Of a DNA stretch of 64,000 nucleotides, positions 2,810 to 44,486 are shown in pieces. Made by a program: the position numbers and the translations under genes. The stretch's first letter is position 1. The number at the start of each line of letters is the position of its first letter. Location: contig CAMYMC010000021.1 of NCBI GenBank assembly GCA_947259365.1, positions 135,816 through 199,815 of the forward strand. Direction: 5' to 3'. Source of the stretch: an uncultured Acidimicrobiaceae bacterium (GTDB lineage Bacteria; Actinomycetota; Acidimicrobiia; Spongiisociales; UBA5794). The notes beneath the pieces are model-generated. The model ran no database searches, had not been told where the DNA came from, and was given only the letters and a program-made list of their open reading frames with translations.

Positions 2810-5800
2810 TCAGCTGCACCCCTTCGAGTCCCCGCAGTTGAGGCACCGGTAGCACGACCCGTTCCTGATCGTGATGTGGCCGCAGGTGTCGCACAGCGGC
2901 GCATCCCCCATCTTGTCGGCAAGCGCTGCCTGGACCGCCGCGGTGCGGACATCTGTCGTCGCATCGATGGTGGCGACGGGGGCGTGCCGCCCGCCGTTGC
3001 CCGCCGCTCTGGTGCCGGACGGCGTCGCGGTTGGGTTCGCCATCGCCCCCGGACCGGGCGAGAGCTCCTTGACGCTCGTCGGCTCGCCGTCTGCGAACTC
3101 CGCTGCCCTCGCTACCGCGGTGAGATCGTCCTCCATCGCCGCTTCCTCGAGACCGAGCTGGACCCCGGCTTCGACGGCGATGCCCCGCGGCGGCTCGGGG
3201 AGCTCGCTGCTGCGATCCGGCGGCACCTGGGCGAGCTCGTCGCGCTCGAGGTACTCGACGCCGAGGGCGCGGAACACATAATCGATGATCGAGTTCGCCA
3301 TCTTGATGTTCGGGTGACCCTCCACCATCCCTCGCGGCTCGAACGTCTGGAAGGTGAACGTGTCGACGAACTCCTCGAGGGGCACGCCGTACTGGAGACC
3401 CTTCGAGACCGCGATGGCGAAGCAGGACAGCACCCCGCGCAGGGTCGCTCCTTCCTTGGCGAGATCGATGAACAGCTCCCCGAGGGTTCCGTCCGAGTAC
3501 TCGCCGGTGCGGAGGAAGATCTTGTGGCCCCCCACCCTGGCCTCCTGAGTGAAACCGGATCTGCGAGCGGGGAGCAGGAACCGGGGGCGGGACAGGTCGG
3601 AGTAGGCCTGCGACGGTGAGATGCCGGGAGCGAACATCCCGGCGTGGATCATCGTCTCGGTCTGGATCGCCTCCTCGACGGCATCCGCAGTGTCGGCGTC
3701 CATGTCATCGGATGCGCCCTCCTCGGCGTTGGCCGACAGCGGCTGGGACGCCTTCGAGCCGTCTCGGTACAGCGCCATCGCCTTGAGACCGAGCTCCCAC
3801 GACATGCGGTAGGCCTCCTCGATGTCGTCCACCGTGATGTCGTTCGGCATGTTGATCGTCTTCGAGATCGCTCCCGAGATGAAGGGCTGGGCGGCGGCCA
3901 TCATCTTGATGTGCCCGACGTGGTGGATGAAGCGCTCGCCGTACTTCCCGTTGCGATTGGCGCAGTCGAAGACGCCGAGGTGCTCGTCGGCGAGGCTCGG
4001 GGCACCCTCGATGGTCTGTCGCCCGCACACGTAGTCGTTGGCGGCGCGAATCTCGTCGTTGGTGAAGCCGAGGGCATGCAGCATGTCGAACCCGGGAGCG
4101 TCGTACTCGGCGGGGGCGAAGCCGAGCCGCAGCATCGTCTCCTCTCCGAGCGTCCACCGGTTGAAGGCGAACCGGAGCTCGAAGACGCCCGGCAGCACCG
4201 CTTGGACCTTCTCGATGTCCTCGGCCCGGAAGCCCTTGGCGATGAGGGCTGATGTGTTGACGTGCGGCGCCCGGTTGAGGTCCATCGTTCCGATGACGTA
4301 CTCGACGATCTGGTCGATCTGTTGCTCGGTGTAGCCGAGCCGGCGCAGGGCCGGTGTCACGGACTGGTTGACGATCTTGAAGTACCCGCCTCCTGCCAGC
4401 TTCTTGAACTTGACGAGAGCGAAGTCGGGTTCGACGCCGGTCGTGTCGCAGTCCATGAGGAGCCCGATCGTCCCGGTCGGGGCGAGCACGGTGGCCTGGG
4501 CGTTGCGGTACCCGTACTCCTCGCCGAGCTTGACCGCGATGTTCCACGCGTTCTGCGCCTCGTGCAGCAAGTCGTTGGGGCAATGGTCGGGGTCGATGCC
4601 GACGACACGATGATCGATGTCCTCGTAGGCGTCCACCTCGGTGTTGTAGGCGGCGCGCTTGTGGTTGCGCATCACCCTGAGCATGGCGTCACGGTTCTCC
4701 TCGAACCGGGGGTACGGACCGAGCACCGACGCCATCTCGGCCGACGCCGTGTAGGCGTAGCCGGTGAGGATCGCGGTGAGCGCCCCGGCGATGGCGCGGC
4801 CCTCGTCGGAGTCGTACGCGATCCCCATCCGCATGAGCAGCGAGCCGAGGTTGGCGTAGCCGAGCCCGAGGGTCCGGTAGTCGTACGAGCCTCGGGCGAT
4901 CTCCCGCGAGGGGAATTGAGCCATCGTCACCGAGGTCTCGAGCACGATCGTCCACAGCCGGATGGCATGCCGGTAGCTCTCGAGGTCGAAGGCGCCGGTC
5001 TCGTCCGAGTAGAAGCTGCCCAGGTTCAACGAGGCGAGATTGCAGGCGGTGTTGTCGAGGAACACGTACTCGCTGCACGGGTTCGTCGCGTTGATCCGGC
5101 CGCCTGCGGGCGCGGTGTGCCACTGCTGGATGGTCGTGTCGAACTGGACCCCGGGGTCGGCGCATTGCCACGCCGCCCTCGCGATCTGGTGCCACAGGTG
5201 GCGGGCCTTGACGGTCCTCATGACGGATCCGTCGGTGCGGGCCGTGAGGTCCCAGTCGCCGTCGGCGAGGACGGCCTCGATGAACTCGTTGGAGAGCCGC
5301 ACCGAGTTGTTCGAGTTCTGCCCGGAGACGGTGGCATAGGCCTCGCCGTTGAAGTCGGCCGGATACCCGGCACCGACGAGGGCGCGAACCTTGTCCTCCT
5401 CGAGCGCCTTCCAGGTGATGAAGCTCTCGATGTCGGGGTGGTCGACGTCGAGGATGACCATCTTGGCGGCGCGGCGGGTGGTGCCGCCGGACTTGATCGC
5501 CCCGGCGGCGCGATCGCCCACCTTGAGAAAGCTCATGAGCCCCGACGACTTGCCCCCGCCCGAGAGCGGCTCGCCCTCGGCACGCAGGCGGGAGAAGTTC
5601 GTGCCGGTTCCGCTGCCGAACTTGAACAGGCGCGCCTCACGGACCCACAGATCCATGATGCCGCCCGCGTTGACGAGGTCGTCGTCGACGCTGTTGATGA
5701 AACACGCGTGGGGCGCCGGCCTGCTGTACGAATCGGGGGACGCTGTGAGCTCCTCGGTCTCGGGATCGACGTACCAGAAGCCCTGGGGCGGCCCGGCGAT

Positions 5801-6262
5801 GCCGTAGCGGTGATGGAGCCCGGTGTTGAACCATTGCGGCGAGTTGGGCGCCGCCATCTGGTGGAGGAGCATGTAGGCGAGCTCGTCCTCGAAGGCGTCG
5901 GCGTCGCTGCTCGTGGCGAAGTAGCCGTGGCGCTCACCCCACCACCGCCACGTCGAGGCGAGGCGGTCGATGACCTGGCGGGCGGAGCGCTCGGGTCCCA
6001 GCACGGGTTCCCCGTCGTCGTCGAGCAACGGATTCCCGGTCTCGTCGAGCTGGGGGACACCCGCCTTGCGGAAGTACTTCGAGACCATGATGTCCGCCGC
6101 CACCTGGGACCATTGATCCGGGATCTCGGCATCCTTCATCTCGAAGACGATGGAGCCGTCCGGGTTGGAGATGCGGGAGTCGCGACGGGTCCACTCGACG
6201 GTCCCGTAGACGTCCTGGCCCTCTGTCGTGAATCGACGTTCGACGCGGAGACCTCTCGTCAT
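2810..6262 (-). CDS. nrdJ: vitamin B12-dependent (class II) ribonucleoside-diphosphate reductase
   Basis: About 1150 aa with N-terminus MTRGLRVERRFTTEGQDVYGTVEWTRRDSRISNPDG and a C-terminal Cys-rich tail CDTCGHITIRNGSCYRCLNCG. The chosen ATG has GGGAGGG upstream. Confidence 0.93.
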   Translation of the reverse strand: MTRGLRVERRFTTEGQDVYGTVEWTRRDSRISNPDGSIVFEMKDAEIPDQWSQVAADIMVSKYFRKAGVPQLDETGNPLLDDDGEPVLGPERSARQVIDRLASTWRWWGERHGYFATSSDADAFEDELAYMLLHQMAAPNSPQWFNTGLHHRYGIAGPPQGFWYVDPETEELTASPDSYSRPAPHACFINSVDDDLVNAGGIMDLWVREARLFKFGSGTGTNFSRLRAEGEPLSGGGKSSGLMSFLKVGDRAAGAIKSGGTTRRAAKMVILDVDHPDIESFITWKALEEDKVRALVGAGYPADFNGEAYATVSGQNSNNSVRLSNEFIEAVLADGDWDLTARTDGSVMRTVKARHLWHQIARAAWQCADPGVQFDTTIQQWHTAPAGGRINATNPCSEYVFLDNTACNLASLNLGSFYSDETGAFDLESYRHAIRLWTIVLETSVTMAQFPSREIARGSYDYRTLGLGYANLGSLLMRMGIAYDSDEGRAIAGALTAILTGYAYTASAEMASVLGPYPRFEENRDAMLRVMRNHKRAAYNTEVDAYEDIDHRVVGIDPDHCPNDLLHEAQNAWNIAVKLGEEYGYRNAQATVLAPTGTIGLLMDCDTTGVEPDFALVKFKKLAGGGYFKIVNQSVTPALRRLGYTEQQIDQIVEYVIGTMDLNRAPHVNTSALIAKGFRAEDIEKVQAVLPGVFELRFAFNRWTLGEETMLRLGFAPAEYDAPGFDMLHALGFTNDEIRAANDYVCGRQTIEGAPSLADEHLGVFDCANRNGKYGERFIHHVGHIKMMAAAQPFISGAISKTINMPNDITVDDIEEAYRMSWELGLKAMALYRDGSKASQPLSANAEEGASDDMDADTADAVEEAIQTETMIHAGMFAPGISPSQAYSDLSRPRFLLPARRSGFTQEARVGGHKIFLRTGEYSDGTLGELFIDLAKEGATLRGVLSCFAIAVSKGLQYGVPLEEFVDTFTFQTFEPRGMVEGHPNIKMANSIIDYVFRALGVEYLERDELAQVPPDRSSELPEPPRGIAVEAGVQLGLEEAAMEDDLTAVARAAEFADGEPTSVKELSPGPGAMANPTATPSGTRAAGNGGRHAPVATIDATTDVRTAAVQAALADKMGDAPLCDTCGHITIRNGSCYRCLNCGDSKGCS

Positions 6263-6324
6263 CCTGCACCCTCCCAAGGCAGTCCGGCCCTCACCTGCGT
6301 GGTTGTCCACAATGTTGTCCACAC

Positions 6325-6372
6325 CCACAACATCTTGTGGTGGGGAAGCGGCTGGGGCCCAAGATGTTGCGC
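6325..6372 (-). promoter_or_regulatory. pair of NrdR-box-like palindromes upstream of nrdJ
   Basis: CCACAACATCTTGTGG (6325-6340, plus strand) and GCGCAACATCTTGGGC (6357-6372, read on the minus strand) share the 10-nt core CAACATCTTG. Their centres are 32 bp apart. A third, weaker copy CCACAATGTTGTCC lies at 6307-6320. Confidence 0.55.
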
Positions 6373-6385
6373 AGTTGGACACACG

Positions 6386-6415
6386 ACTGTAATTACGCGC
6401 GTGTCATTCTGTCAA
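6386..6415 (-). promoter_or_regulatory. candidate sigma70-type promoter of nrdJ
   Basis: On the minus strand: TTGACA (6415-6410), an 18-nt spacer, then TACAGT (6391-6386). It sits directly upstream of the NrdR-like boxes. Confidence 0.4.
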
Positions 6416-6709: not shown

Positions 6710-7495
6710 ATGCCGCATCGCTCGTCGTACGCCGAGGGAACGCCGAGCTGGGTCGACCTGTCGACCCCGGATCCCGAGGCGTCCAAAGCCTTCTACGCCG
6801 GCCTGTTCGGCTGGAGCTGGGAGGACCAGCATCAGGAGGGCCAGTACATCTATTCGATCGCGTCGCTCGACGGCGCCCAGGTCGCCGGGCTCGGCCCCCA
6901 GCCCGAGGAGATGACCCGTCAGGGTATGCCACCGTTGTGGAACACATATCTCGCCGCGGACAGCTGCGACGGCTGCACCCAGCGCGCCGTCGACGCCGGT
7001 GGGAAGACGATCGTCGAGCCCATGGACGTCATGGACGCCGGCCGTATGGCGTTCATCGCCGACACCCAGGGAGCGGTCTTCGGTCTCTGGGAGGCGGGCA
7101 CCCACCGTGGCGCCGAGAAGGTGACCGAGCCGGGCGCGTTCACCTGGGCGGAGCTCTACGTTCCCGACACCGAGGCTGCGGCACGCTTCTACGAGGCCAC
7201 CGTCGGACTCGGCGCCGAAGCGGCCGACATGGGTGAGATGCCGTACACGACGTGGAAGGTCGGCGACGCAGTCGTCGGCGGGACGATGCCGCCGCCGATG
7301 CCGGGGATTCCGAACCACTGGCACGTGTACTTCGGCGCCTCCGACACCGCTGGCCTCGTCGCCCGCGCTCGCGAGCTCGGAGCCACGGTGCTCGTCGAGC
7401 CGATGGACACACCGGTCGGCGCGATGGCAACCATCCAGGACCCCCAGGGAGGCGCGTTCTCGGTCATCCAGCTCAACGAGTGGCCCACCGGGTGA
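6710..7495 (+). CDS. VOC (glyoxalase/bleomycin-resistance fold) family protein, two-domain
   Basis: 261 aa with RBS GAGGAGGAGG upstream. The half-motifs are repeated (FYAGLFGW..., FYEATVGL..., and the P.G..A.I.DPQGA.F type). Confidence 0.8.
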   Translation: MPHRSSYAEGTPSWVDLSTPDPEASKAFYAGLFGWSWEDQHQEGQYIYSIASLDGAQVAGLGPQPEEMTRQGMPPLWNTYLAADSCDGCTQRAVDAGGKTIVEPMDVMDAGRMAFIADTQGAVFGLWEAGTHRGAEKVTEPGAFTWAELYVPDTEAAARFYEATVGLGAEAADMGEMPYTTWKVGDAVVGGTMPPPMPGIPNHWHVYFGASDTAGLVARARELGATVLVEPMDTPVGAMATIQDPQGGAFSVIQLNEWPTG

Positions 7496-7510
7496 GGTGA
7501 CCCGGCTCGA

Positions 7511-7547
7511 ACGCGGAGAGCCCCGCTACGGCGGGGCTCTCTCGCGT
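7511..7547. terminator. terminator-like hairpin between convergent genes
   Basis: GAGAGCCCCGC-TACG-GCGGGGCTCTC forms a perfect 11-bp stem, extended by ACGCG/CGCGT. Confidence 0.6.
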
Positions 7548-7569
7548 CGTGGGTGGTCGGCTGCGGGCC

Positions 7570-9624
7570 TCAGGCGCTGAAGGGGACCCACACCTGGTCG
7601 TCGAGGGAGTCGAGATCGCTCTCGAGGATCCCCTTGAGCGAGACCGTGAACAGCGAGTCGTCGACGACGACGCTGCGCTGGATCTGCGCCATCCAGTCCC
7701 ATGCGTCACCGTCCGAGGATCCGCCGGGGTGGGTGATCTTGCCCATCGGCCTCAACTCGCCTTCGGGATCGACGTCGACGCCGAAGGCTCCGAAGAACAC
7801 TTCCTCTTTGCCGGAGCGCTCGTCCCAGCTCCACGACTGGACGGGGAGCACGGTGAGACCGGTCTCGGGCCAGTGGAGGAACGCCCGGTGGTCGTACTCG
7901 ACGCTGGAGTTGCCCTCGCCGAGCGTGATCTGGTCGATGCGGCGCGGGTTCTCGAGGTCGCTGATGTCGAACAGCGAGACCTGGGTGCCGAGCGTCCGGC
8001 CCTCTTCGGTGGCGTCCTGGCCGACGCCGAGGAGCAGGCCGTCCGAGACCGGGTGCAGGTAGGCGGAGTAGCCGAGGATCTTCAGCTCACCCGTCACCTT
8101 GGGAGCGGTCGGCTCGGAGAGGTCGATCGTGTAGAGCGGGTCGGTCTGGCGGAACGTGACGACGTAGCCCACGTCGCCCATGAAGCGGACCGAGTAGATC
8201 TGCTCGCCCTTGCCCAGGCCGTCCACGACGCCGATGCGCTCGAGGATCCCGTCGACTGGCTGGAGCACACTGACGAGGGATTCCGACTCGCGACCTTCGT
8301 TCCACCACCAGTTGGGGCTCGTTGTCGAGGCGACTCGCAGATAGCCCTTGTGCTCTGACATGGCGAACTGGTTGAGGAGGAACCCGGTCACCTCACCGGA
8401 GGCGACATAGTCGGTCCGCTCTTCACGGGAGATGTCGAACTGGTGGATGGCGGTGCGGACGGTGTCGATCTCCTCTTCGATCGAGGCCTCGTCCTCGAAC
8501 ACCGCCCAGTCGATCCACCGCTGGGTGGCGACGTACAGCGAGTCCGTCGACGCGTACACCGTCTGCCCGCTCGCCAGGACGCCGGTGGCGTCGACGATGT
8601 CGAGCCCGTTGTCCAGATCCACGGTGATGACGTTGAGCATGCCGAGGCCGGAGAACTCGACTGGGTGGTTCGCCCGGTCGCACTCGATGAGGTTGCCCTC
8701 GGCCACCACGGTGCCCCGGCCGTTCGTCATCACGAAGTAGGGAACCCAGTTGTCGACCGTCGAGTTGCGGATGATCTCCTTGTTCTTCTCCAGCGCGGTG
8801 CGCTCGGCGCGGAGACCACCGCCCTCCGGGTAGGCCCACACGAGCCCGGTCGGACCGGAGTTGACGACGACCCTGACCGTGTCGTCGACCATGCGGGCGC
8901 TCAGGTAGCTGCCGTCGAGCTCGAGGATGCGGACGATCTCCATGGCGTCGGGGTCGGAGATGTCGATCTCGACGAGGTCGGCGGTCGGAGACTCGTAGTA
9001 CGGGTAGTAGTCGGGAGCGATGAGCGCCTCCGACTCGATTGCCGGGGCGGCGAGGTGGGTACGCCAGTTCGCCCCCATCAGCAGGACCGTGTCATCGGAG
9101 AGGAACATGTCCTGGACGTAGCGATCGCCGAGGGGCAGGGACCCGACGAGGCGTGGTGTCGCCGAGGCGACGTCGACGACGAACAGTGTGTTCTGGCTCA
9201 GGGCGACGATTCGGCGGCCGTCGGTCTTGACGATGTCGGGCTCGTCGACGCCGAGCTCCTGGACGTTCGTTCCCGAGTAGTCGACGCCTTCGACGCGACC
9301 TTCAGCCTGGGGGAACGACGCGGCGACCGTCGTTGCCGGAGCGGCGGCGTCCTCGGCGACTCCTCTTCCGGCGAGCGGCATCGGGAAGCCGAACCCGCCG
9401 TCGAGCCCCCACGGGGTCACGAGGTCGAGCGCATGGGTCTTCACGTACTCGAGGAACCCGTCGCACGCCTCGAATGGGACGAGCGAGAACGCGGCGGGCT
9501 CGCCGCGCTGGGTTGCCACCGTGCCGACGGTGATCCCACGCGTGGTAGGTGGCGCATCGGTCGTGTTCGTGCACGCAGCCATCACCACGGCGGTGGCGAT
9601 GAGAGTGATCGTGAGGCGTCGCAT
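7570..9624 (-). CDS. secreted beta-propeller domain-containing protein (lipoprotein-like signal)
   Basis: 684 aa. N-terminus is MRRLTITLIATAVVMAAC. The C-terminal region YSVRFMGDVGYVVTFRQTDPLYTIDLSEPTAPKVTGELKILGYSAYLHP matches my recollection of the Beta_propel family. Confidence 0.75.
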   Translation of the reverse strand: MRRLTITLIATAVVMAACTNTTDAPPTTRGITVGTVATQRGEPAAFSLVPFEACDGFLEYVKTHALDLVTPWGLDGGFGFPMPLAGRGVAEDAAAPATTVAASFPQAEGRVEGVDYSGTNVQELGVDEPDIVKTDGRRIVALSQNTLFVVDVASATPRLVGSLPLGDRYVQDMFLSDDTVLLMGANWRTHLAAPAIESEALIAPDYYPYYESPTADLVEIDISDPDAMEIVRILELDGSYLSARMVDDTVRVVVNSGPTGLVWAYPEGGGLRAERTALEKNKEIIRNSTVDNWVPYFVMTNGRGTVVAEGNLIECDRANHPVEFSGLGMLNVITVDLDNGLDIVDATGVLASGQTVYASTDSLYVATQRWIDWAVFEDEASIEEEIDTVRTAIHQFDISREERTDYVASGEVTGFLLNQFAMSEHKGYLRVASTTSPNWWWNEGRESESLVSVLQPVDGILERIGVVDGLGKGEQIYSVRFMGDVGYVVTFRQTDPLYTIDLSEPTAPKVTGELKILGYSAYLHPVSDGLLLGVGQDATEEGRTLGTQVSLFDISDLENPRRIDQITLGEGNSSVEYDHRAFLHWPETGLTVLPVQSWSWDERSGKEEVFFGAFGVDVDPEGELRPMGKITHPGGSSDGDAWDWMAQIQRSVVVDDSLFTVSLKGILESDLDSLDDQVWVPFSA

Positions 9625-9701
9625 TGCCGGCTCCCGGTCTTGTCGTCCTGGTCGCAGCTACGACGACCGGGCGGACCTGGCGGGTTCCCGGGTCGAGAGC
9701 G

Positions 9702-10247
9702 TTAGAGATTGCCGAGAACCCGTTCGGGATCGATGAACACTGCGGCACGCCGCTCTTCGGCCATGACCCGGTCGTACTCGTCCCAGTCGTCGTGGGTTCC
9801 GCCGGCTGCCGTGAACACTGCCCGCAGCAGCTCGGGGAGCCGGTGCGGATCGAAGCCGGGATAGGGGTCGTCCGGGCCGATGACGTCCGCCGGGCCCTCG
9901 ACGCCGGCCCAGCGCCATCCGGCGCGAAAGACCAGCGATGCCCGCCCGGCGCGGGTGAAGAGCGTGCGCTTCCACGCCTTGCCGCGGACGGCCAGTGCGA
10001 CGACGTCGTGCCCGTCGACCGGGTGCGCCATGACGCCGGCGTTGACGACGGTCGAGTGGACCGAGCCGTCGGGTCGGGTCGTCGAGACGACGGCGAGACC
10101 GCGGTCGGCGGCGGCGATGGCACGGACGTCGTCGAGGGTCGGCACCGGCCCAGTCTCGCACAGCCGGAGTCGCCGCCTCACGGAAGTGCGGGTGCGGGCA
10201 CGAGGTCTCGGCGCAGTCGCTCTCGCGTGATCGACGCCGGGCTTCAT
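9702..10247 (-). CDS. PPOX-class (pyridoxamine 5'-phosphate oxidase-like), probably F420-dependent, oxidoreductase
   Basis: The conserved part runs TLDDVRAIAAADRGLAVVSTTRPDGSVHSTVVNAGV...RASLVF. The start is uncertain: ATG at 10247 or an in-frame GTG at 10181. Confidence 0.6.
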   Translation of the reverse strand: MKPGVDHARATAPRPRARTRTSVRRRLRLCETGPVPTLDDVRAIAAADRGLAVVSTTRPDGSVHSTVVNAGVMAHPVDGHDVVALAVRGKAWKRTLFTRAGRASLVFRAGWRWAGVEGPADVIGPDDPYPGFDPHRLPELLRAVFTAAGGTHDDWDEYDRVMAEERRAAVFIDPERVLGNL

Positions 10248-10495
10248 GCGTCGCCTGGGGACCGTCTGGGTCGGACGCTGAAGCGGGATGGACCACGGTT
10301 GAGGCGACCGGCTTGCCGATCTCGATCGCAGGTCTCCTCTTGCGGGTAGCTTTGGGAGACGCAACGCGGTGAGGGAGCCTGGATGTCGTGTGACAGACGC
10401 CGCCCGCCGGCCTGGTTCGCTGCGGCGCGTCCCATACGCGGCCGGGACCCTGCGCATCGCGCTCGCCGGGACCCGTTCGAGAAGACCGAGCCGGG

Positions 10496-11359
10496 TTGGA
10501 CGTTGCCATGAAGCTCACATTGCTGGGCACCGGCATTCCAGCCCCGACGGCGGAACGCCAGGGGAGTGCCAACCTGGTCGAGATCGGAGAGCAGGTCCTC
10601 CTCGTCGACGCTGGCCGGGGGGCGACCACCCAGTTGGCGCGGGTCGGGTTGGCCCCCGCCGTCGTAGATCAGGTGTTCATCACTCATCACCACTTCGATC
10701 ACATGAGCTGCCTCGACGATCTGCTGCTCAGCGCATGGAACGGTGGCCGGTCCGACCCCATCGCCGTCTTCGGCCCGCCCGGAACCGCAGACATCGTCGA
10801 GACCCTTCTGTACCAGGTGTATCGCCGCGACATCGAGTACCGCTTGTTCGAGGCCGAGAGATTGGGTTTCGTGGTGCCGGACTTGCGGGCCCTCGTCGTG
10901 ACTCGTGATTTGGCGGCGGGCGAGGTGGTGGAGGGGCCTGGATGGTCGGTGCGCGCCGATCTCGTCGAACATGGGCATTCACTCGGCCTCACGCACGAAG
11001 AGTGGCCGTGTCTCGGCTACCGCGTGGAGGCAGAGGGCAGCGTTGTCGTGTTCAGCGGCGATGCGGTCGCGTGTGATGCCCTCGACCGTCTCGCCGAAGG
11101 CGCCGACGTGCTGGTGCACTGTTGCTATCTCGCCGATGTCGAGCTCGACACACACCAACGCCGGATGTTGGCCGATCATGTGCTCGCCGGATCGGTGCAA
11201 GCCGGTGGCACGGCGGCGCGAGCGCACGTCAAGAAGCTGGTGCTCACTCATCTCGCGCCGAAGAGCCCAGATGCGCTGGCGGCCATCGAGCATGACGTCC
11301 GCCGTTCGTACACCGGTGACATGGTCATCGGGGAAGATCTGCTCAGCATCGAAGTCTGA
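10496..11359 (+). CDS. MBL-fold metallo-hydrolase (RNase Z/BN-like)
   Basis: 287 aa with KLTLLGTGIPAP, the ITHHHFDH motif and a C-terminal VLTHL. The start could instead be the MKL codon 12 nt downstream. Confidence 0.8.
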   Translation: MDVAMKLTLLGTGIPAPTAERQGSANLVEIGEQVLLVDAGRGATTQLARVGLAPAVVDQVFITHHHFDHMSCLDDLLLSAWNGGRSDPIAVFGPPGTADIVETLLYQVYRRDIEYRLFEAERLGFVVPDLRALVVTRDLAAGEVVEGPGWSVRADLVEHGHSLGLTHEEWPCLGYRVEAEGSVVVFSGDAVACDALDRLAEGADVLVHCCYLADVELDTHQRRMLADHVLAGSVQAGGTAARAHVKKLVLTHLAPKSPDALAAIEHDVRRSYTGDMVIGEDLLSIEV

Positions 11360-11410
11360 GCCGAGGCCCCGTCTCCCGGCCATACCCACCGATTGGCCGC
11401 CGGCGGGGGA

Positions 11411-11761
11411 CTACCCGACGGAGCAAACGCCGACGGTCCCACTGATCGGAGTCATGGATGAACCGCCAGTCTCCGCTCCCCGGCGTGTTCCCCGGACGCT
11501 TGTCACGGAGCGTGTCCCTCCCAGGACCGCCGGCGAACGAGATTGCCGACGCGGACCGTGCCTCAAGCTGCGTACGCGCTGGCTGCGCGGACCACGTCCT
11601 CTCCGGTCCCTGCCGGCGGCTCCATGGGCCTCCTGCAACATCGCGCGCAGCTCGTGTTGCCGGTGCTTCAGCGCGAGACGCTGGTCGAAGTCGTTCGCGG
11701 AGAGCGCGGCGAGGGCGTCCATCACCGAGGCGAGCTCGGTCAGAATCTGGTGCCCGTCCAT
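11411..11761 (-). CDS. hypothetical small protein
   Basis: From the ATG (MDGHQILTELASVMDALAALSANDFDQRLALKHRQHELRAMLQEAH) the first ~50 codons have strong GC3. The Arg-rich remainder has weaker codon bias, so the 3' end is doubtful. Confidence 0.3.
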   Translation of the reverse strand: MDGHQILTELASVMDALAALSANDFDQRLALKHRQHELRAMLQEAHGAAGRDRRGRGPRSQRVRSLRHGPRRQSRSPAVLGGTRSVTSVRGTRRGAETGGSSMTPISGTVGVCSVG

Positions 11762-11898
11762 CGTCCAAACATGTCGAACTGCGCTTCGACGTGTCGGGCC
11801 ATCGTTCCCGGTGGTGTCGAGGTGCGACCTCGCCCGAGTTGGCGGCTGCCCATTGCTCACCGGGTGGCGAACCGCCGTGCGGCTACGATCCTTGCGCA

Positions 11899-12387
11899 GT
11901 GCTCACCCCCGGAACCGTGGCACCCGACTTCGACGTCGCCGACCAGTGGGGCGGCCGCGTCCGACTCCGCGACCTTCGCGGCACCTGGGTGGTGCTGTGG
12001 TGGTACCCGAAAGCCGCCACGTCGGGATGAACGGATGAAGGGCAGGGGTTCCGTGACCGAATCCCGGACTTCGACGGGCTCGGCGTGGTGATCCTCGGCA
12101 TCTCCTACGACACCCCCGATGACAACCGCGCCTGGGCTGAGAAGCACCGGTTCCCGTTCCAGCTCCTCTCCGACGAGGATCGCTCCGTGGCCGGGGCCTA
12201 CGGCGCAGTCCGCCACCCCGACGATGCCTCCCCCGGGCGCCCCCGGAGGATCACCTACGTCATCGACCCGGCGGGTGTGATCCGGCTGTCGTATCGCGTG
12301 GCCTCAGCCGACATCGCCGGCCACGCCGACCGGGTGCTCGCCGACGTGGAGGTACGCATCGACGCACCGCGCCGCGGCGGGGTCTGA
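11899..12387 (+). CDS. Bcp/PrxQ-type peroxiredoxin with in-frame TGA at the peroxidatic Cys position (probable selenoprotein)
   Basis: Track ORFs 11458..12030 and 12085..12387 are in the same frame with no other stop between them. Read-through gives VLTPGTVAPDFDVADQWGGRVRLRDLRGTWVVLWWYPKAATSG[TGA]TDEGQGFRDRIPDFDGLGVVILGISYDTPDDNRAWAEKHRFPF. That is the PxxxTxxC motif with TGA (12028-12030) in place of C. The GTG start at 11899 gives a typical ~160-aa length. Confidence 0.7.
12045..12065 (+). promoter_or_regulatory. SECIS-like hairpin downstream of the peroxiredoxin TGA
   Basis: GGGGUUC-CGUGACC-GAAUCCC has a 7-bp stem with one G-U pair. It starts 15 nt after the UGA and has GU in the apical loop. 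Confidence 0.45.
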
Positions 12388-19495: not shown

Positions 19496-20092
19496 TCAGC
19501 CCGGGTCGCGTTGTCGCCCCGCGGCATCGAGCCAGTCCTCCGGTTCGACGCCGAGCCCGTCGGCGATCCGGTTGATGTAGTTGAAGTAGGCGCAGACCTG
19601 GGTCGCGTCGTGGATGGCACGGTCGTCCCATCCCGCGGCCCGCAACGCGGCGACGTCGCCCTCAGCCATGTCTCCCGGTGCCAGCGAGAGCTTCTCTGTG
19701 TACTCGAGCAGGGCCACCGTCTTCGCATCGAGGCCGGCCGTTCTCCATCCCGTCGCGACCCGGTCGGCGAGCGCCCGGGCGTGGTCGTCGTCGAGGTCGA
19801 GGTCGGCGCCGATCTCCGACCGGAGATCGTGCAGGTGGGCCTGGACTCAGTACTCGCACTCGTTGGCGACGGAGGTGACGACGGCGATGAGCTCGCGCTG
19901 GGAGCGGCTCAACGGTGACTCGCCGAACATGAGCGAGCCGTAGAGCCGCATCGAGTCGCGCATCGCTTCGCCGTTCTGGCTCATGATCGCCACGATGTTC
20001 CAGATGCGTCCGGCGCGCCGCATCGCGGCCTCGTACTCGCGTCGCGTCGCACCGGTCGCGGCGTCCGGCGGGATCTCCTCGATGTACGGCAT
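19496..20092 (-). CDS. AhpD/carboxymuconolactone-decarboxylase-family peroxidase-related protein with CxxU (in-frame TGA; probable selenoprotein)
   Basis: Track ORFs 19847..20092 and 19496..19717 are in the same frame, with 43 open codons between them. Read-through gives ...LSRSQRELIAVVTSVANECEY[TGA]VQAHLHDLR...LLEYTEKLSLAPGDM...CAYFNYINRIADGLGV. This matches the N-x-C-x-Y-C-x-x-x-H motif with TGA (19847-19849) at the second Cys. Confidence 0.7.
19810..19829 (-). promoter_or_regulatory. SECIS-like hairpin downstream of the AhpD-like TGA
   Basis: On the minus strand: C-GAUCUCC-GGUC-GGAGAUC-G, an 8-bp perfect stem with a GGUC tetraloop. It starts 18-19 nt after the UGA. GGUC is also the apical loop I recall for the E. 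coli fdhF SECIS. Confidence 0.5.
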
Positions 20093-20132
20093 CGTCTCGG
20101 GACACTACCGCCCGGCTCTCTAGTCTTGGCCG

Positions 20133-21239
20133 ATGGCCGTCGTCTCCGTTCTCGTGTTCACCGCCGGGCTGTGGTTGGTGGGTTGGACGATCCTCTCCGC
20201 CGTCCGCACCGTCATCTTGCCCCGCAACGCTCAGTCGATCATCACCCGGGCCGTGTTCCGCAGCGTCCGGGTCCCGTTCCGGTGGCTCGCCGGTGAGCGG
20301 CGCACGTTCGAGAGCCGCGACCGGATCCTCGCCCTCTTCGCCCCCGTGGGTCTCGTGGCCCTGCCCGGGGTGTGGCTCACCATCGTCACCGCCGGGTACA
20401 CGCTGATGTTCTTCGCGCTCGGCGGCCGCAGCCTGGGAGAGGCGTTCCATCTCAGCGGCTCATCGGTCACGACGCTCGGCTTCGCCCCGGCCACGACGCT
20501 CGTCGAGAGGGCACTGGCCTTCACCGAAGCCGGCTGGGGACTCTTCCTCGTCGCCCTCATGATCACCTACCTCCCCTCCCTCTACTCGGCCTTCGCCCGG
20601 CGCGAGGCCCTCGTCGCCCTCCTCGAGGTTCGCGCCGGGAAGCCCCCCTCGGCGACCGAGTTCATCGAGCGGCACCACCGCATCGGGTGGCTCGACGAGC
20701 TGCGGGAGACGTGGCTCGCCTGGGAGCTGTGGTTCGCCGAAGTGGAGGAGTCGCACTCGAGCTTCCCCGCGCTCGTCTTCTTCCGCTCCCCAGATCCCGG
20801 CCGTCACTGGCTCACCGCCGCGGGAACGGTGCTCGACTCCGCCTCGGTGTTCATGTCGTCGGTGGAGGGCGTCGAGCGGGGTCCGCCCGGCGTCTGCGTG
20901 CGCTCCGGCTACCTCGCGCTGCGCAAGATCGCCGACTTCTTCGGCATCGCCTTCGATCCCGATCCCGCCCCGACCGATCCGATCTCGATCACCCGGGACG
21001 AGTTCGAATCTGCCCTCGATCATCTCGGCGGCGTCGGCGTGCAGCTCACCCCGGATCGGGACCAGGCGTGGCGCGACTTCGCCGGATGGCGGGTCAACTA
21101 CGACACCGTGCTCCTCCAGCTCGCCGAGGTCACACAGGCGCCCTACGCGCCGTGGACGGCCGACCGCTCAGCGGTGAGCCGGGAGCGGCCGAGGATGCGG
21201 CGTTTTGGACGCCGCGCCGGAGCCGGGCGGGAGGGATGA
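20133..21239 (+). CDS. hypothetical polytopic membrane protein with soluble C-terminal domain
   Basis: 368 aa with N-terminal TM helices and a pore-loop-like SGSSVTTLGFAP segment. No family could be assigned with confidence. Confidence 0.65.
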   Translation: MAVVSVLVFTAGLWLVGWTILSAVRTVILPRNAQSIITRAVFRSVRVPFRWLAGERRTFESRDRILALFAPVGLVALPGVWLTIVTAGYTLMFFALGGRSLGEAFHLSGSSVTTLGFAPATTLVERALAFTEAGWGLFLVALMITYLPSLYSAFARREALVALLEVRAGKPPSATEFIERHHRIGWLDELRETWLAWELWFAEVEESHSSFPALVFFRSPDPGRHWLTAAGTVLDSASVFMSSVEGVERGPPGVCVRSGYLALRKIADFFGIAFDPDPAPTDPISITRDEFESALDHLGGVGVQLTPDRDQAWRDFAGWRVNYDTVLLQLAEVTQAPYAPWTADRSAVSRERPRMRRFGRRAGAGREG

Positions 21240-24742: not shown

Positions 24743-25680
24743 CGCCGGCCTCCTGCGACGCCCGTGACTTCGTAGAGCGGGCGCGGCTGCGCGCCGAGGC
24801 GGTACTTGTAGGCCTCGTCGCCCTTGAGCAGGTCGAAGCGAGTGCGCCCGGCGGCGACGGCGCCGCGGATGAGCATCTCGAGGAGGACGATGCCGGGGCT
24901 GTGCTCGCGGTCCTCGGGCTCGTACGTCGAGTTGTAGAGGTAGTACGCGTCCGGCTCCTCGAAACCGACCGCCATGGCGTGCACCCGCCCGTCGCCGCCG
25001 ACGAGCGCATCGACGACGGCCCCGGCGTCGCGATGAAGCACCGCGAAGAAGGACTCGTGTGCTTCGTCCATGAAGCTGCCCTTCTCTCCGGCGGAGCGCC
25101 GGTGCATCGCGGCGAAGTCCGCAATCGAGCGCCGTCCCCGTCGCCGCTCGAGGACAGGAGGTCCGAGCCCTGCCTCGAAGCGTCTCCGTTTCCTCCGCAT
25201 CTCGTGGCGGTCCTTCTTCGCCAGCGCGGCGAGGTACTCATCGAACGTTGCCGGGAGCGTGAGCACAGGAGCGACCTCGTGCTGACGGAGGGGCGCCGGA
25301 CAGCCTGCGAGCTCGACGGCTTTGGCGACGACCTCAGCGGCCTCGATCGGCATGCTGTCGAACCGGAACGGGGTCGCCTCGTCGACTCCGGCGAGGTACT
25401 CGGCGAGGAGTTCGACGATCCCGGCACCGCGCGGGGAGTGATAGTCGGTGACGTCGCCATCGCCCGCGAACTCGAGGGTTGAGGCGGTGCGCATCATCGG
25501 GACGAGGCCGTCCTCCGCCTCGACGAGGTGGATCCGAGCACCGTTGCCGAGGACGCGATGCCAGGCGGCGAGGAACTGGGCTCCGGCGAAGGGCCCGATG
25601 TGCGGCGCCGCGGGCGCAGCGTCGAACATCTCGGTCGCCCAATCGTCGTGTACCCGCATCGTATCGTGCCGCTCAATCAC
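24739..25680 (-). CDS. GNAT-family acetyltransferase (CelD/BioF2-like)
   Basis: 313 aa with a C-terminal YYLYNSTYEPEDREHSPGIVLLEMLIRGAVAAGRTRFDLLKGDEAYKYRLG. It overlaps the mshA start by 4 nt. The start could also be the ATG at 25659. Confidence 0.7.
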   Translation of the reverse strand: MIERHDTMRVHDDWATEMFDAAPAAPHIGPFAGAQFLAAWHRVLGNGARIHLVEAEDGLVPMMRTASTLEFAGDGDVTDYHSPRGAGIVELLAEYLAGVDEATPFRFDSMPIEAAEVVAKAVELAGCPAPLRQHEVAPVLTLPATFDEYLAALAKKDRHEMRRKRRRFEAGLGPPVLERRRGRRSIADFAAMHRRSAGEKGSFMDEAHESFFAVLHRDAGAVVDALVGGDGRVHAMAVGFEEPDAYYLYNSTYEPEDREHSPGIVLLEMLIRGAVAAGRTRFDLLKGDEAYKYRLGAQPRPLYEVTGVAGGRR

Positions 25681-26602
25681 TGAATTCGACGCGCCCGACC
25701 GTCCGGCCGCCGCCGAGGACGGGGGGATGGGCCACGCCCTCGAGCGCCTCGAGCGCTGCTTGTGACAACATCCCGAGGCGGCGCATTGCTTCCATCATGC
25801 CCATGGCGGCAACCCAATGTGACCCGGAGTCGGACTTGACCGCGATGCCGACGCCGCGCCGGCCGGCAGCGAGCAAGCCCTCGGCCCCACCCTTCACCGG
25901 CCCTCCGAACCAGGCGGCGATGCGACTCTCGGGTCGCTCGTTGCCGCCCACGAGGCCCGGGAATCTGCACATCGCCGTCCTTGCCGCGCCGTAGCGGGAG
26001 TCCTCGCTCAGGGCGGCGAACCCCAGGGCGAGACCGCGGATCGAGCCGCGCAGCGTCGGGGCGCCGCAGCCGTCGACGCCCACAGGGTGGGGATCGATGC
26101 CGGTGCATTCCGCGATCGCGTGTGCGATCGACCGCTGCAGGGGGTGGGCCGGATCGAGGTAGGACCCGGTCGGCCAACCAGCCGCCGCACACGCGGCAAG
26201 CCAGCCGGCGTGTTTCCCCGAGCAGTTGTGGAAGATGCCATCCGGTGTGCGGCGACCCGATTCTCGCACCCGCGCCGCGGCGAGGTCTCCGAGCGGCCAT
26301 GACGGAGGCGTCTGGAGATCGCGCTCGTCGAGCCCGGCGCCGGCGAGTATCGATCGGACGAGAGCGAGGTGGGCGGGAGCGCCGCTGTGACTCGAGCAGG
26401 CGACCGCGAGCTGCTCGACGTCGAGAGAGGCACCCGCCTCGAGTGCGATCGTCGCCTGGAAGGGTTTGACCGCGGAGCGGTAGTACAAGGGCCGGTCGGC
26501 GTCACCCCACCCTCCGAGCGCCTTCCCCGAGGCGTCGACGACGACCGCCCGGGTGTGGTGGACCGACTCGATGAGCCCGCTACGTGTCGTCTCGGCGCGC
26601 AC
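25673..26602 (-). CDS. asparaginase II family protein
   Basis: 309 aa with YYRSAVKPFQA, SSHSG, NCSGKHAG and VDGCGAP motifs. Confidence 0.85.
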   Translation of the reverse strand: MRAETTRSGLIESVHHTRAVVVDASGKALGGWGDADRPLYYRSAVKPFQATIALEAGASLDVEQLAVACSSHSGAPAHLALVRSILAGAGLDERDLQTPPSWPLGDLAAARVRESGRRTPDGIFHNCSGKHAGWLAACAAAGWPTGSYLDPAHPLQRSIAHAIAECTGIDPHPVGVDGCGAPTLRGSIRGLALGFAALSEDSRYGAARTAMCRFPGLVGGNERPESRIAAWFGGPVKGGAEGLLAAGRRGVGIAVKSDSGSHWVAAMGMMEAMRRLGMLSQAALEALEGVAHPPVLGGGRTVGRVEFSD

Positions 26603-37067: not shown

Positions 37068-37171
37068 AGCTGCCAGAGGAAGGCGCCAACGATGAGGACG
37101 AGTAGGGCGAGGACGACGAGGGCTGTCACCGGGCGCATGGGGATCCCGACCATAGTGAGCGATGGGGCTTC

Positions 37172-37459
37172 GTGGTGAACGGCCCGATCCTGCGGTTCGT
37201 CACCAGGGAACGCTGCCACATCTGTGAGGAATCCGCAGCGCGGGTTCGGGCGGCGGCGAGGCGGCTCGGCGTCCACGTCCTCGAGGTCGACGTCGACGGC
37301 GACGAGCACCTCCAGGCCGCGTTCGGCGGCCGAGTGCCGGTTGTCCTCAACGCGAGGGACCGGGTGCTCGCCGAGGGCCGCATCGGCACGGGCGCGGCGT
37401 GGCGGGCGGCGTTGCGGGCCAGGGTCGGCGGACGGGGCCGCTTCATGCCCGCCAGCTGA
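37172..37459 (+). CDS. glutaredoxin-like (thioredoxin-fold, CxxC) protein
   Basis: 95 aa. Sequence is LRFVTRERCHICEESAARVRAAARRLGVHVLEVDVDGDEHLQAAFGGRVPVV. It sits just upstream of rex. Confidence 0.7.
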   Translation: MVNGPILRFVTRERCHICEESAARVRAAARRLGVHVLEVDVDGDEHLQAAFGGRVPVVLNARDRVLAEGRIGTGAAWRAALRARVGGRGRFMPAS

Positions 37460-37494
37460 AGTGCTCCGCGGGGTGTCTATCCTCCCGGCGTGAG

Positions 37495-38121
37495 ATGAAC
37501 AGGTCGATTCCAGCGGCGACAGTGAGCCGGCTGCCGATCTATCTGCGGTCCCTGAACGATCTGCCGTCGGGTCAGTCGACGTGCTCCTCAGAGGATCTCG
37601 CCGAGATCGCCGGCGTCAACTCGGCGCAGGTGCGCAAGGACCTCTCGTACCTCGGCTCCCCCGGCGTCCGCGGAGTCGGCTACCACGTCGCCGATCTCCG
37701 TGAGGTACTCCGCCAGGCCCTAGGGCTCACCCAGGGGTACGCGGTCGTCATCGTCGGTGCCGGTCACCTCGGCACGGCACTCGGCAACTACGGCGGGTTC
37801 GAGGCGTGGGGCTTCTCCGTCGTTGCGGTCCTCGACGCCGACGTGGAGAAGGTGGGGACGATGGTCGGCGGACGGGCCGTCGAGGCCATGGAGCGCCTCG
37901 AGGAGATCGTGGCGGCGAGGGAGGTCTCCATCGGGATCATCGCCACGCCGATGGAGGCGGCCCAGGAGATCGCGGAGCGGCTCACGGCAGCGGGGGTTCG
38001 GTCCATCCTCAACTTCGCCCCGACGGTTCTGCGGGTCGCCCCCGGTATCGAGGTGCGGCGCGTGGACCTGTCGACAGAGCTTCAGATCCTGACGTTCCAC
38101 CTCCAGGCGTCCGGCGCCTGA
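37495..38121 (+). CDS. rex: redox-sensing transcriptional repressor Rex
   Basis: Sequence includes ATVSRLPIYLRSL, SSEDLAEIAGVNSAQVRKDLSYLG, GVGYHV, the Rossmann motif VVIVGAGHLG and ILNFAP. Confidence 0.9.
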   Translation: MNRSIPAATVSRLPIYLRSLNDLPSGQSTCSSEDLAEIAGVNSAQVRKDLSYLGSPGVRGVGYHVADLREVLRQALGLTQGYAVVIVGAGHLGTALGNYGGFEAWGFSVVAVLDADVEKVGTMVGGRAVEAMERLEEIVAAREVSIGIIATPMEAAQEIAERLTAAGVRSILNFAPTVLRVAPGIEVRRVDLSTELQILTFHLQASGA

Positions 38122-42363: not shown

Positions 42364-43146
42364 TCAGAGTGGTCCGGAGATGCCGCCGTCCTTGCGGACT
42401 CTCCAGAAGTGGACGGCCATGAACACGACGATGATGAACGGCAGGAAGAGGACGTGCAGGACGTACCACCTCAATAACGTGTCGGGCGTGATCTGGACGC
42501 CTCCAATGAGGGTGAAGGTCACCTGATCCCCGAACACAGGGACGTACGCGGCCATGTTCGACCCGACCGTCACCGCCCAGATGGCGAGCTGGTCCCAGGG
42601 GAGCAAGTAGCCGGTGAACGACAGCAGGAGCGTCAGCAGCAACAGGATGACCCCGACCATCCAGTTGAACTCCCGGGGAGGCTTGTAGGCCCCGTGGTAG
42701 AAGACCCGCGCCATGTGGAGGAACACCGTGAGGACCATGGCATGGGCGCCCCACCGGTGCATGTTGCGCACGATCTGGCCAAAGGCGACGTCGGTCGAGA
42801 GCGCCTGGATGTCGATGTACGCCGCCGGGGACGTCGGGCGGTAGTAGAACATCAGGAAGATGCCCGTGATCGTGAGCAGGATGAAGAGGAAGAAGCTCAG
42901 CCCACCGAGACACAGCGTGTACGAGAGGCGCACACCGTGGCGCTTCACCTTCACCGGGTGGAGGTGGTACAGCACGTTGTTCATGATGACGTAGGAGCGG
43001 TTCCTCGGGCTGTCGGAGTAACCGGCGCGGAACGGGGAGCCGGGCCGGAAGATGCTCGACCACACCTGGCTCTGGCGGACGTGGTCCGCCGCGTCGGACA
43101 GGCGGTCCCGCAACCCGGGTCTGCCGTTACCCGTGCCGTTCGCCAC
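42364..43146 (-). CDS. qcrB: cytochrome b6-type (N-terminal four-helix, diheme) subunit
   Basis: 260 aa. Sequence includes [47 protein letters not shown] and LHVLFLP. Confidence 0.9.
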
Positions 43147-43221
43147 TCGATGCTCCTCGTCCTGTCGGGCCCTCGGCCCCCGGTGCGGCGTGCAGCGTAT
43201 CCGACCGAGCGGCTTCGAGCA

Positions 43222-43671: not shown

Positions 43672-44274
43672 CTACCTCCCCACCTTCGTGAGGGGGCGTC
43701 CGTAGGGCGAGACCGGCTCCGGCTTCGGGGTCGTGACCCGCTTGCCCGCCCGGACCTGCCACTGGTACATGGCGAAGACGATGAGTCCGGTGATGACGAG
43801 GTGGTAGATGCCGGACACCGCGTCCTTGACGGCGGCGTACGAGATGGACACCTCGTTGTTGAGCATGAGCCACTTCGGGAGCGTGATCGCGATCCTCTGC
43901 GGCGTCCACTCCCACACCGATTGCGTCAGCGTGAGCCACTCGTTGGGCACGAGTCCGTAGAGGATCATCATCAGGGTGGTGAAGAGAGTGGCGCCGAGCG
44001 AGGCCCGGGCCCACGTCATCTCCCGCTGGTAGAGGAAGGCCACGGCGACGCCCGCGATGAGGACGAGACCGCCGGCGAGGGAGATGACCTGGCCGATGAC
44101 GACCCACTGCCATCCCCGGGGTATGGCCGGGTAGATCTCCGCACCGACATCGTTGAGTTCTGACAAGCCGGTGAAGTGGGCGAACAGCGCCCCGGCGATC
44201 GTCACGAAGCCACCGGCGAGGATGGCGGCGATCCCGATCCTGCGGTACTTGTTCAGCTCGCGGATGTCGGTCAT
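43672..44274 (-). CDS. hypothetical membrane protein, first gene of the bc-type operon
   Basis: About 200 aa from the ATG (MTDIRELNKYRR), with 5-6 TM helices. Its stop lies 3 nt before the ferredoxin start. Confidence 0.6.
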   Translation of the reverse strand: MTDIRELNKYRRIGIAAILAGGFVTIAGALFAHFTGLSELNDVGAEIYPAIPRGWQWVVIGQVISLAGGLVLIAGVAVAFLYQREMTWARASLGATLFTTLMMILYGLVPNEWLTLTQSVWEWTPQRIAITLPKWLMLNNEVSISYAAVKDAVSGIYHLVITGLIVFAMYQWQVRAGKRVTTPKPEPVSPYGRPLTKVGR

Positions 44275-44486
44275 TTCGGCGGCATCGCTCCGTGGCGTCG
44301 GGACCGTGTCGGGTCGGCTCGCGACCGTACCGCTCGGCATTCTACGCACGGCTCACGGCGACACGAACTCGGCCCCGGACGGCACGGAGATGGATTCACC
44401 GCGCCGGCGCGGCGAAGCTAGGCTGCCCTCCGCCGCGCCACAGGACTGTGGGACGAACCAGTGCGTACGGGGAGGAGCCACGGGCG

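Follow-up and report, generated by a model that had tools for sequence, protein, structure and literature searches.

A peroxiredoxin gene interrupted by an in-frame UGA very likely encodes a Bcp/PrxQ-type selenoprotein in an Acidimicrobiia-like genome

Positions 11899-12387 of the window (the whole 64-kb stretch of DNA that we analyzed) very likely hold one gene for a 162-residue peroxiredoxin of the Bcp/PrxQ type, in which selenocysteine (Sec) encoded by the UGA at 12028-12030 is the peroxidatic residue (Table 1). We attribute the fact that gene callers cut this gene, here called prx, in two to the replacement of its catalytic Cys by Sec, encoded as a recoded UGA. The ORF listing contains ORFs 11458..12030 (+, 190 aa) and 12085..12387 (+, 100 aa), which lie in the same frame and are separated by a single stop, the TGA at 12028-12030. 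The initial annotation had described one frame interrupted only by this codon, and the listing, the sequence and the translation all bear this out. Translation from GTG 11899 gives MLTPGTVAPDFDVADQWGGRVRLRDLRGTWVVLWWYPKAATSG-UGA-TDEGQGFRDRIPDFDGLGVVILGISYD and continues to the TGA at 12385-12387, and at the active site the read-through product reads WWYPKAATSG[TGA]TDEGQGFRDRIPDFDGLGVVILGISYD. The N-terminus, MLTPGTVAPDF, resembles the starts of the homologues (MLAPGTTAPDF, MLAEGTKAPDF and MLEPGTVAPDF). This supports GTG 11899 as the start, so that the long stretch by which ORF 11458 reaches further upstream is spurious; the protein of about 162 aa, a normal length for a Bcp, that had been proposed from this start was thus confirmed. 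Apart from the TGA at 12028-12030, the copy in the window has no further stop or frameshift. The GC3 value downstream of this codon is 0.87, as in other genes, which agrees with the earlier remark that the GC3 bias persists there; the GC content of the window is about 70% throughout. A scan for a promoter and a terminator around prx found nothing.

Table 1 Features of the window and of the prx family discussed in the text
Feature	Position	Strand	Details
Predicted Sec-containing Bcp/PrxQ-type peroxiredoxin CDS (prx)	11899..12387	+	162 residues, GTG start, Sec44, TGA stop 12385-12387
Active-site motif P37-x3-T41-x2-U44 (PKAATSG-UGA)	12007..12030	+	Aligned to YPKDSTPGC of Xanthomonas Bcp
UGA probably read as Sec, peroxidatic position	12028..12030	+	Homologous codon is TGA in 75/84 related loci
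Possible lower SECIS helix	12036..12073	+	UGAAG 12036-12040 with CUUCG 12069-12073, enclosing the upper hairpin; MFE fold
Putative SECIS upper hairpin	12045..12065	+	7-bp stem GGGGUUC/GAAUCCC, 7-nt apical loop CGUGACC; MFE fold
Catalytic Arg codon, R117 (in PRRITYVID)	12247..12249	+	Invariant in alignment A1; aligns with the Arg of ERSTF in Xanthomonas Bcp
AhpD-like/CMD gene, second UGA gene	19496-20092	-	UGA 19847-19849; ANECEY-UGA-VQAH (CxxU)
UGA-terminated Asparaginase_II gene	25673-26602	-	
UGA-terminated cytochrome b gene	42364-43221	-	
UGA-terminated COX1/FixO gene	44175-46427	+	
Register A of the family hairpin (window type)			Stem offsets from the U of UGA 17-23 with 31-37; apical loop CGUGAYC, 7 nt
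Register B of the family hairpin			Stem offsets from the U of UGA 12-19 with 23-30; apical loop GUU, 3 nt

When Cys was substituted for the stop, the read-through product matched Pfam AhpC-TSA (PF00578) over residues 5-129 of 162 (1.5e-35), and its best matches among solved structures were Bcp proteins (5iph, 3.9e-21, residues 13-151). In the alignment with 5iph, the Xanthomonas Bcp, the UGA falls on the Cys of YPKDSTPGCTTEG; together with the AhpC-TSA match, this substantiates the earlier placement of the stop on the Cys of the PxxxTxxC motif of the Bcp/PrxQ family. Alignment A1 shows no variation at P37 or at position 44. The features by which Bcp/PrxQ proteins are recognized are therefore present: the AhpC-TSA/thioredoxin-fold domain extends over the whole protein according to its sequence matches, and the PxxxTxxC motif is accompanied by the catalytic Arg, with U44 standing for C. 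The top NCBIfam matches were PrxQ and Bcp models, with scores below the equivalog cut-offs (NF053650, 92.6 bits, cut-off 260; NF006960, 88.9 bits, cut-off 140). Judged by these matches, prx is a member of a divergent Bcp/PrxQ subfamily with the signature VVLWWYPKA.

A resolving Cys, either five residues after the peroxidatic position or in helix 3, was sought in prx and not found; the whole protein is free of Cys, and the residue at U+5 is Gln. Sec44 is hence the sole redox residue of the predicted selenoprotein, which places it in a 1-Cys-like subtype. Many relatives have a Cys at U+5 (UxxxxC, as in UTAEGCGFRD), many of those with the register B hairpin described below included.

The check by protein search that had been suggested for the Cys-substituted read-through product returned full-length Cys homologues with 51-58% identity and, in addition, many C-terminal fragments of about 100 residues. 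These fragments suggested that genes of relatives are perhaps split in the same way, and reading the DNA confirmed it. We collected 84 copies with the motif from an 80-locus metagenome scan keyed on VVLW[WF]YPKA, the loci that had already been fetched and the window itself. The peroxidatic codon in these metagenome and MAG loci was TGA in 75 cases, TGC in eight and TGT in one, and the frame runs on for 99-119 codons past the TGA wherever the contig allows. The TGA is retained at the same codon in relatives with 39-56% identity. For example, it occupies the homologous codon, and the frame is open before and after it, in L001 (86% nucleotide identity), where the flanking codons differ synonymously, in an Actinomycetota MAG (L004, 54% aa identity) and in a Polyangia MAG (L006, 39% aa identity). 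Over the 105 codons after the UGA, the window and L001 show 21.5 synonymous and 14.5 non-synonymous differences, corresponding to a dN/dS of 0.20; the comparison indicates that the part of prx after the TGA is under purifying selection. By its frequency in these loci, TGA at the catalytic codon is more than chance. An in-frame UGA aligned with a redox Cys and an ORF conserved on both sides of it are the marks of a Prx (TxxU) selenoprotein, and prx has both.

These data have to be weighed against the possibility that prx is a pseudogene, i.e., that a TGC/TGT-to-TGA nonsense mutation killed an ordinary Cys-Bcp gene and left the two ORFs as remnants. One third-position transversion suffices to make TGA from a Cys codon, no Sec machinery was seen within the 64-kb window, and some related copies do decay. 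In L001, prx is 5'-truncated by a 4.56-kb deletion (window 7419-11979) that takes the first ~27 codons. L002 (9826-10300) and L003 (4636-5110), two ENA contigs from different samples that differ by 1 nt over 475 nt, have kept the TGA, but a 1-nt insertion lies some 10 nt ahead of it, directly in front of TSG-UGA, and the Pro of the PxxxT motif has become Ala; theirs is probably a decaying copy. The truncation and the frameshift imply that prx is dispensable and can decay in some lineages. A nonsense mutation, however, would not persist over the divergence across which the TGA is shared, down to 39% identity with the downstream frame intact, and neither the dN/dS and GC3 values after the TGA nor the lack of any other lesion in the window copy fits a dead gene. 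The initial annotation had envisaged as evidence of decay that relatives carry a Cys codon and the window copy deteriorates; instead, the relatives mostly have TGA, and their downstream frames are intact. A pseudogene is thus very unlikely, and we regard prx as a Sec peroxiredoxin rather than a dead gene, a reading to which the hairpin covariation and the second UGA gene described below also lend support.

Two further observations concern the L001 locus (NCBI MAG GCA_012974925.1). Its positions 1-200 correspond to window 7318-11980 and join a glyoxalase gene to prx codon ~28; the junction may reflect a genuine deletion or a chimeric assembly. The same MAG is also without about 1 kb matching window 20190-21210.

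Bacterial SECIS elements have been described as stem-loops after the UGA (PMC1088965). A hairpin of this kind had been pointed out at 12045-12065, and it indeed exists and is part of the MFE fold: it begins 15 nt after the UGA and presents its apical loop 21 nt after it, so that a stem-loop just after the UGA with a small, G-containing apical loop is present in prx. As evidence from a single sequence, however, it is weak. By itself, the window hairpin was not significant (dinucleotide-shuffle z -0.67; synonymous-codon-shuffle z -0.22), and all seven pairs were kept in 16% of the synonymous recodings of QGFRDRIP with the codon usage of the window. No Rfam family matched the prx hairpin or the 64-kb window, the hits being chance miRNA-like ones only. 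We therefore turned to comparisons among relatives.

The 72 distinct Sec sequences split into two registers of the hairpin, A and B, with 27 sequences assigned to A, 39 to B and six to neither as defined; most of these six are shifted variants such as GGGCCUG-CGUGA-CAGGUCC. For the alignments (A2 and A3; loci L009-L088, 51 nt after the UGA), L052, L083 and L084 from set B, which also fit A at six of seven pairs, were moved to A, giving 30 and 36 sequences. Since both alignments were chosen for pairing, their percentages of paired cells are inflated; this choice bears less on the slid controls and on how varied the pair types are. In the 30 orthologues of register A, 96% of the cells of the upper helix are paired, against 15-52% in the slid controls, and three pairs change on both sides (GC/CG/UA/AU, GU/AU/GC/CG and UA/CG). 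The possible lower helix, with 80% of cells paired across orthologues and two pairs changed on both sides, is less well supported than the upper one. In the 36 sequences of register B, 98% of the cells are paired, and one pair is GC in 22 sequences, CG in 11 and UA in two.

One of the two registers was fitted by 66 of the 72 Sec sequences and by two of the nine Cys sequences (Fisher p = 1.5e-5), the hairpin being missing in the other seven Cys-form relatives. When the 45 nt after the UGA were compared with synonymous recodings, the mean z for 70 Sec genes was -1.2, with 24 of them at ≤5%, whereas the same stretch after the peroxidatic codon of the nine Cys genes gave a z of +0.07 and 0/9 at ≤5%. 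The covariation of the hairpin among Sec forms, together with its loss from Cys forms, is a further argument against a nonsense mutation in an ordinary Cys gene. A close pair of a Sec and a Cys gene, L079 565-630 (TGA) and L082 2024-2089 (TGC), differs in that the hairpin-forming FRD of the former is FHA in the Cys form, as expected if the RNA constraint vanishes with the UGA.

The registers are mutually exclusive and are both built around a GGGUUCCG (Gly-Phe-Arg) core, the triloop of B lying 4-5 nt nearer to the UGA. In both of them, pairing is tied to the encoded peptide. Through the GC/CG/UA pair of register B, the second base at codon U+5 (Cys/Ser/Leu) is linked to the synonymous third base of an Arg codon; in register A, it is the Gly and Phe/Leu codons that vary together with the residue at U+11 (Ile, Ser, Ala or Val). 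We tentatively propose, with somewhat more doubt than confidence, a Cys-free 1-Sec PrxQ that needs an external recycling partner and belongs to a family whose SECIS has been rebuilt in two registers, with the RNA dictating residues. If the two-register SECIS is true and undescribed, it would be a clean natural case of SECIS turnover and of an RNA constraint on a peptide close to the active site.

The window contains a second gene with an internal UGA, 7.5 kb from prx. This AhpD-like gene is at present split into two ORFs, 19496-19846 and 19850-20104, and reads VTSVANECEY-UGA-VQAHLHDL around the UGA. Its read-through product matched Pfam CMD with 1.3e-10, and an 8-bp stem (CGAUCUCC-GGUC-GGAGAUCG, ~19810-19829) begins 17 nt downstream of the UGA codon. 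The UGA is kept as TGA in L001 (7335-7931). AhpD-like CxxU proteins are another established selenoprotein family (PMC1088965). When the window was scanned for in-frame TGA codons flanked on either side by coding signal, just two of them stood in redox motifs, those of prx and of the AhpD-like gene; otherwise, TGA is an ordinary stop in the window. We considered whether prx and the AhpD-like gene form a conserved pair and rejected this idea, as, outside the window, they lie near each other in its close relative L001 only. The AhpD-like selenoprotein is conceivable as the reductant of prx; we do not propose it, because other loci do not preserve the pairing. More generally, no neighbor of prx was common to more than about 12 loci in a crude all-against-all ORF clustering that was swamped by overlapping alternative-frame ORFs.

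The presence of two independent selenoprotein-type genes in 64 kb makes Sec decoding by the host very likely. The search for the machinery itself covered the window and the related loci. SelA, SelB and SelD/AIRS domains were not detected by Pfam among about 50 window ORFs, and ARAGORN found no tRNA in the 64-kb window. In 46 related loci, ARAGORN detected a single tRNA-Arg and no tRNA-Sec, and motif scans for Sec machinery in 807 kb of related-locus DNA gave only an IF2-like GTPase. The best named relatives of NuoD from the window, with 80-84% identity, are from Acidimicrobiia/Actinobacteria MAGs, and complete Sec machinery has been documented in another order of the Acidimicrobiia (bioRxiv 10.64898/2026.04.03.716425, 2026 preprint). 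An aerobic lifestyle is indicated by the nuo genes, the haem-copper oxidase and other respiratory genes in the window. Taken together, the genes point to a high-GC, aerobic, Acidimicrobiia-like host for which Sec decoding of UGA and the use of selenium against peroxides are very probable.

The internal UGA could also be translated as Trp, Gly or Cys rather than Sec, as some bacterial lineages reassign UGA and low-level read-through of UGA by tRNA-Trp or tRNA-Cys is known. The lack of Sec machinery in the 64-kb window would fit such a reading, but UGA terminates many well-supported genes of the window, prx and the AhpD-like gene themselves as well as the three listed in Table 1. Besides, each of the two internal UGAs stands where a known selenoprotein family has its redox Cys and has a hairpin after it, and a GC content of 70% is unlike that of the known lineages with reassigned UGA. 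Code reassignment or near-cognate read-through is therefore very unlikely as well. A sequencing or assembly error that turned TGC or TGT into TGA would be conceivable in a metagenome-type contig, but its probability is negligible given that TGA stands at this codon in independent assemblies from many projects, including the 86%-identical L001.

If prx is indeed a Sec peroxiredoxin, its synthesis and catalysis can be outlined from the established bacterial Sec pathway and from peroxiredoxin chemistry. SelB-GTP-Sec-tRNASec would bind the hairpin 12045-12065 within the coding sequence, and the complex would bring Sec to the ribosome, competing there with release factor 2. The selenolate of U44, placed by P37, T41 and R117, would then attack H2O2 or an organic hydroperoxide at the O-O bond, yielding a selenenic acid on U44. 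As a protein without Cys has no intramolecular resolving step, prx is expected to follow a 1-Sec mechanism analogous to that of the 1-Cys peroxiredoxins: the selenenic acid would be reduced directly by an external thiol partner, e.g., thioredoxin, mycoredoxin or a low-molecular-weight thiol. Relatives of register B with a Cys at U+5 could form a selenenylsulfide.

The closest known system is the Prx TxxU family of Zhang and Gladyshev and their successors. As in prx, its members combine an AhpC-TSA domain and best matches to Bcp/PrxQ with Sec at the peroxidatic position of PxxxTxxC and a 3' hairpin with a G-containing apical loop. In the Sargasso Sea selenoproteome, peroxiredoxin (Prx, COG1225, TxxU) was the second most abundant family with 43 sequences, and the family is abundant in environmental metagenomes (PMC1088965). 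A 2016 survey counted 91 such Prx proteins in 78 organisms (PMC5029168), and Prx/COG1225 (Bcp)/TxxU is listed among the established families, with the motif PxxxTxxU being cited (PMC9312934, PMC13188914). Nothing essential separates prx from this family; the window member is Cys-free and comes from a high-GC, apparently aerobic, Acidimicrobiia-like genome. On the basis of its sequence, it is an additional, mis-annotated member of the Prx TxxU selenoprotein family in such a genome.

The Cys-containing Bcp/PrxQ proteins (Xanthomonas campestris Bcp, 5iph/3gkk, and E. coli Bcp) belong to the same fold family by sequence and share with prx the catalytic P, T and R residues and the length. The Bcp proteins of Xanthomonas and E. 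coli are atypical 2-Cys enzymes, whereas in prx Sec replaces the peroxidatic Cys and there is no resolving Cys. AhpE of Mycobacterium tuberculosis (Rv2238c) resembles prx in its single redox-active residue, in its need for an external reductant and in its actinobacterial host, but uses Cys where prx would use Sec; the sequence match between the two was 1.5e-15, and prx is closer to Bcp than to AhpE. The SECIS of E. coli fdhF is an in-ORF stem-loop directly after the UGA with GU in its apical loop. The prx hairpin likewise is a stem-loop in the ORF after the UGA, although its sequence and stem differ and the prx family uses two different registers. PrxU of Eubacterium acidaminophilum (NF040737), cited as the experimental precedent for a Sec-containing peroxiredoxin (PMC13188914, PMC9312934), also has a peroxidatic Sec. 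However, it represents a different Prx subfamily, and we rejected the identification of prx as PrxU, since its score was 51.1 bits against a cut-off of 270 and its 162 residues compare with a model of 233 positions.

For annotation, it follows from our reading that prx is intact and should be entered as a single selenoprotein CDS in which a translation exception marks 12028-12030, rather than as a pseudogene or as fragments; the AhpD-like gene at 19496-20092 (-) should likewise be one selenoprotein CDS instead of two pieces. About nine in ten of the sampled members of the subfamily are Sec forms, and since standard gene callers split these, the subfamily is systematically under-annotated. The understanding of selenoproteins as such is unchanged, as Bcp-type Sec peroxiredoxins have been known since 2005; the residual interest lies in the Cys-free 1-Sec chemistry and in the alternative SECIS registers with their RNA-driven covariation of codons and residues.

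Among the other genes of the window, a glutaredoxin-like DUF836 ORF (37106-37459, +) partly overlaps, in another frame, an ORF for a Rex-type redox-sensing repressor (37228-38118, +; Put_DNA-bind_N and CoA_binding). Beyond the latter lie respiratory genes for cytochrome c, cytochrome b/Fe-S and the COX1/FixO haem-copper oxidase, followed by the nuo operon from about 51.6 kb. At the other end of the window, the gene at 2810-6403 (-), about 1,197 codons long, encodes a B12-dependent (class II) ribonucleotide reductase that has an additional TSCPD domain at its C-terminus and whose match to the barrel domain is interrupted by a gap.
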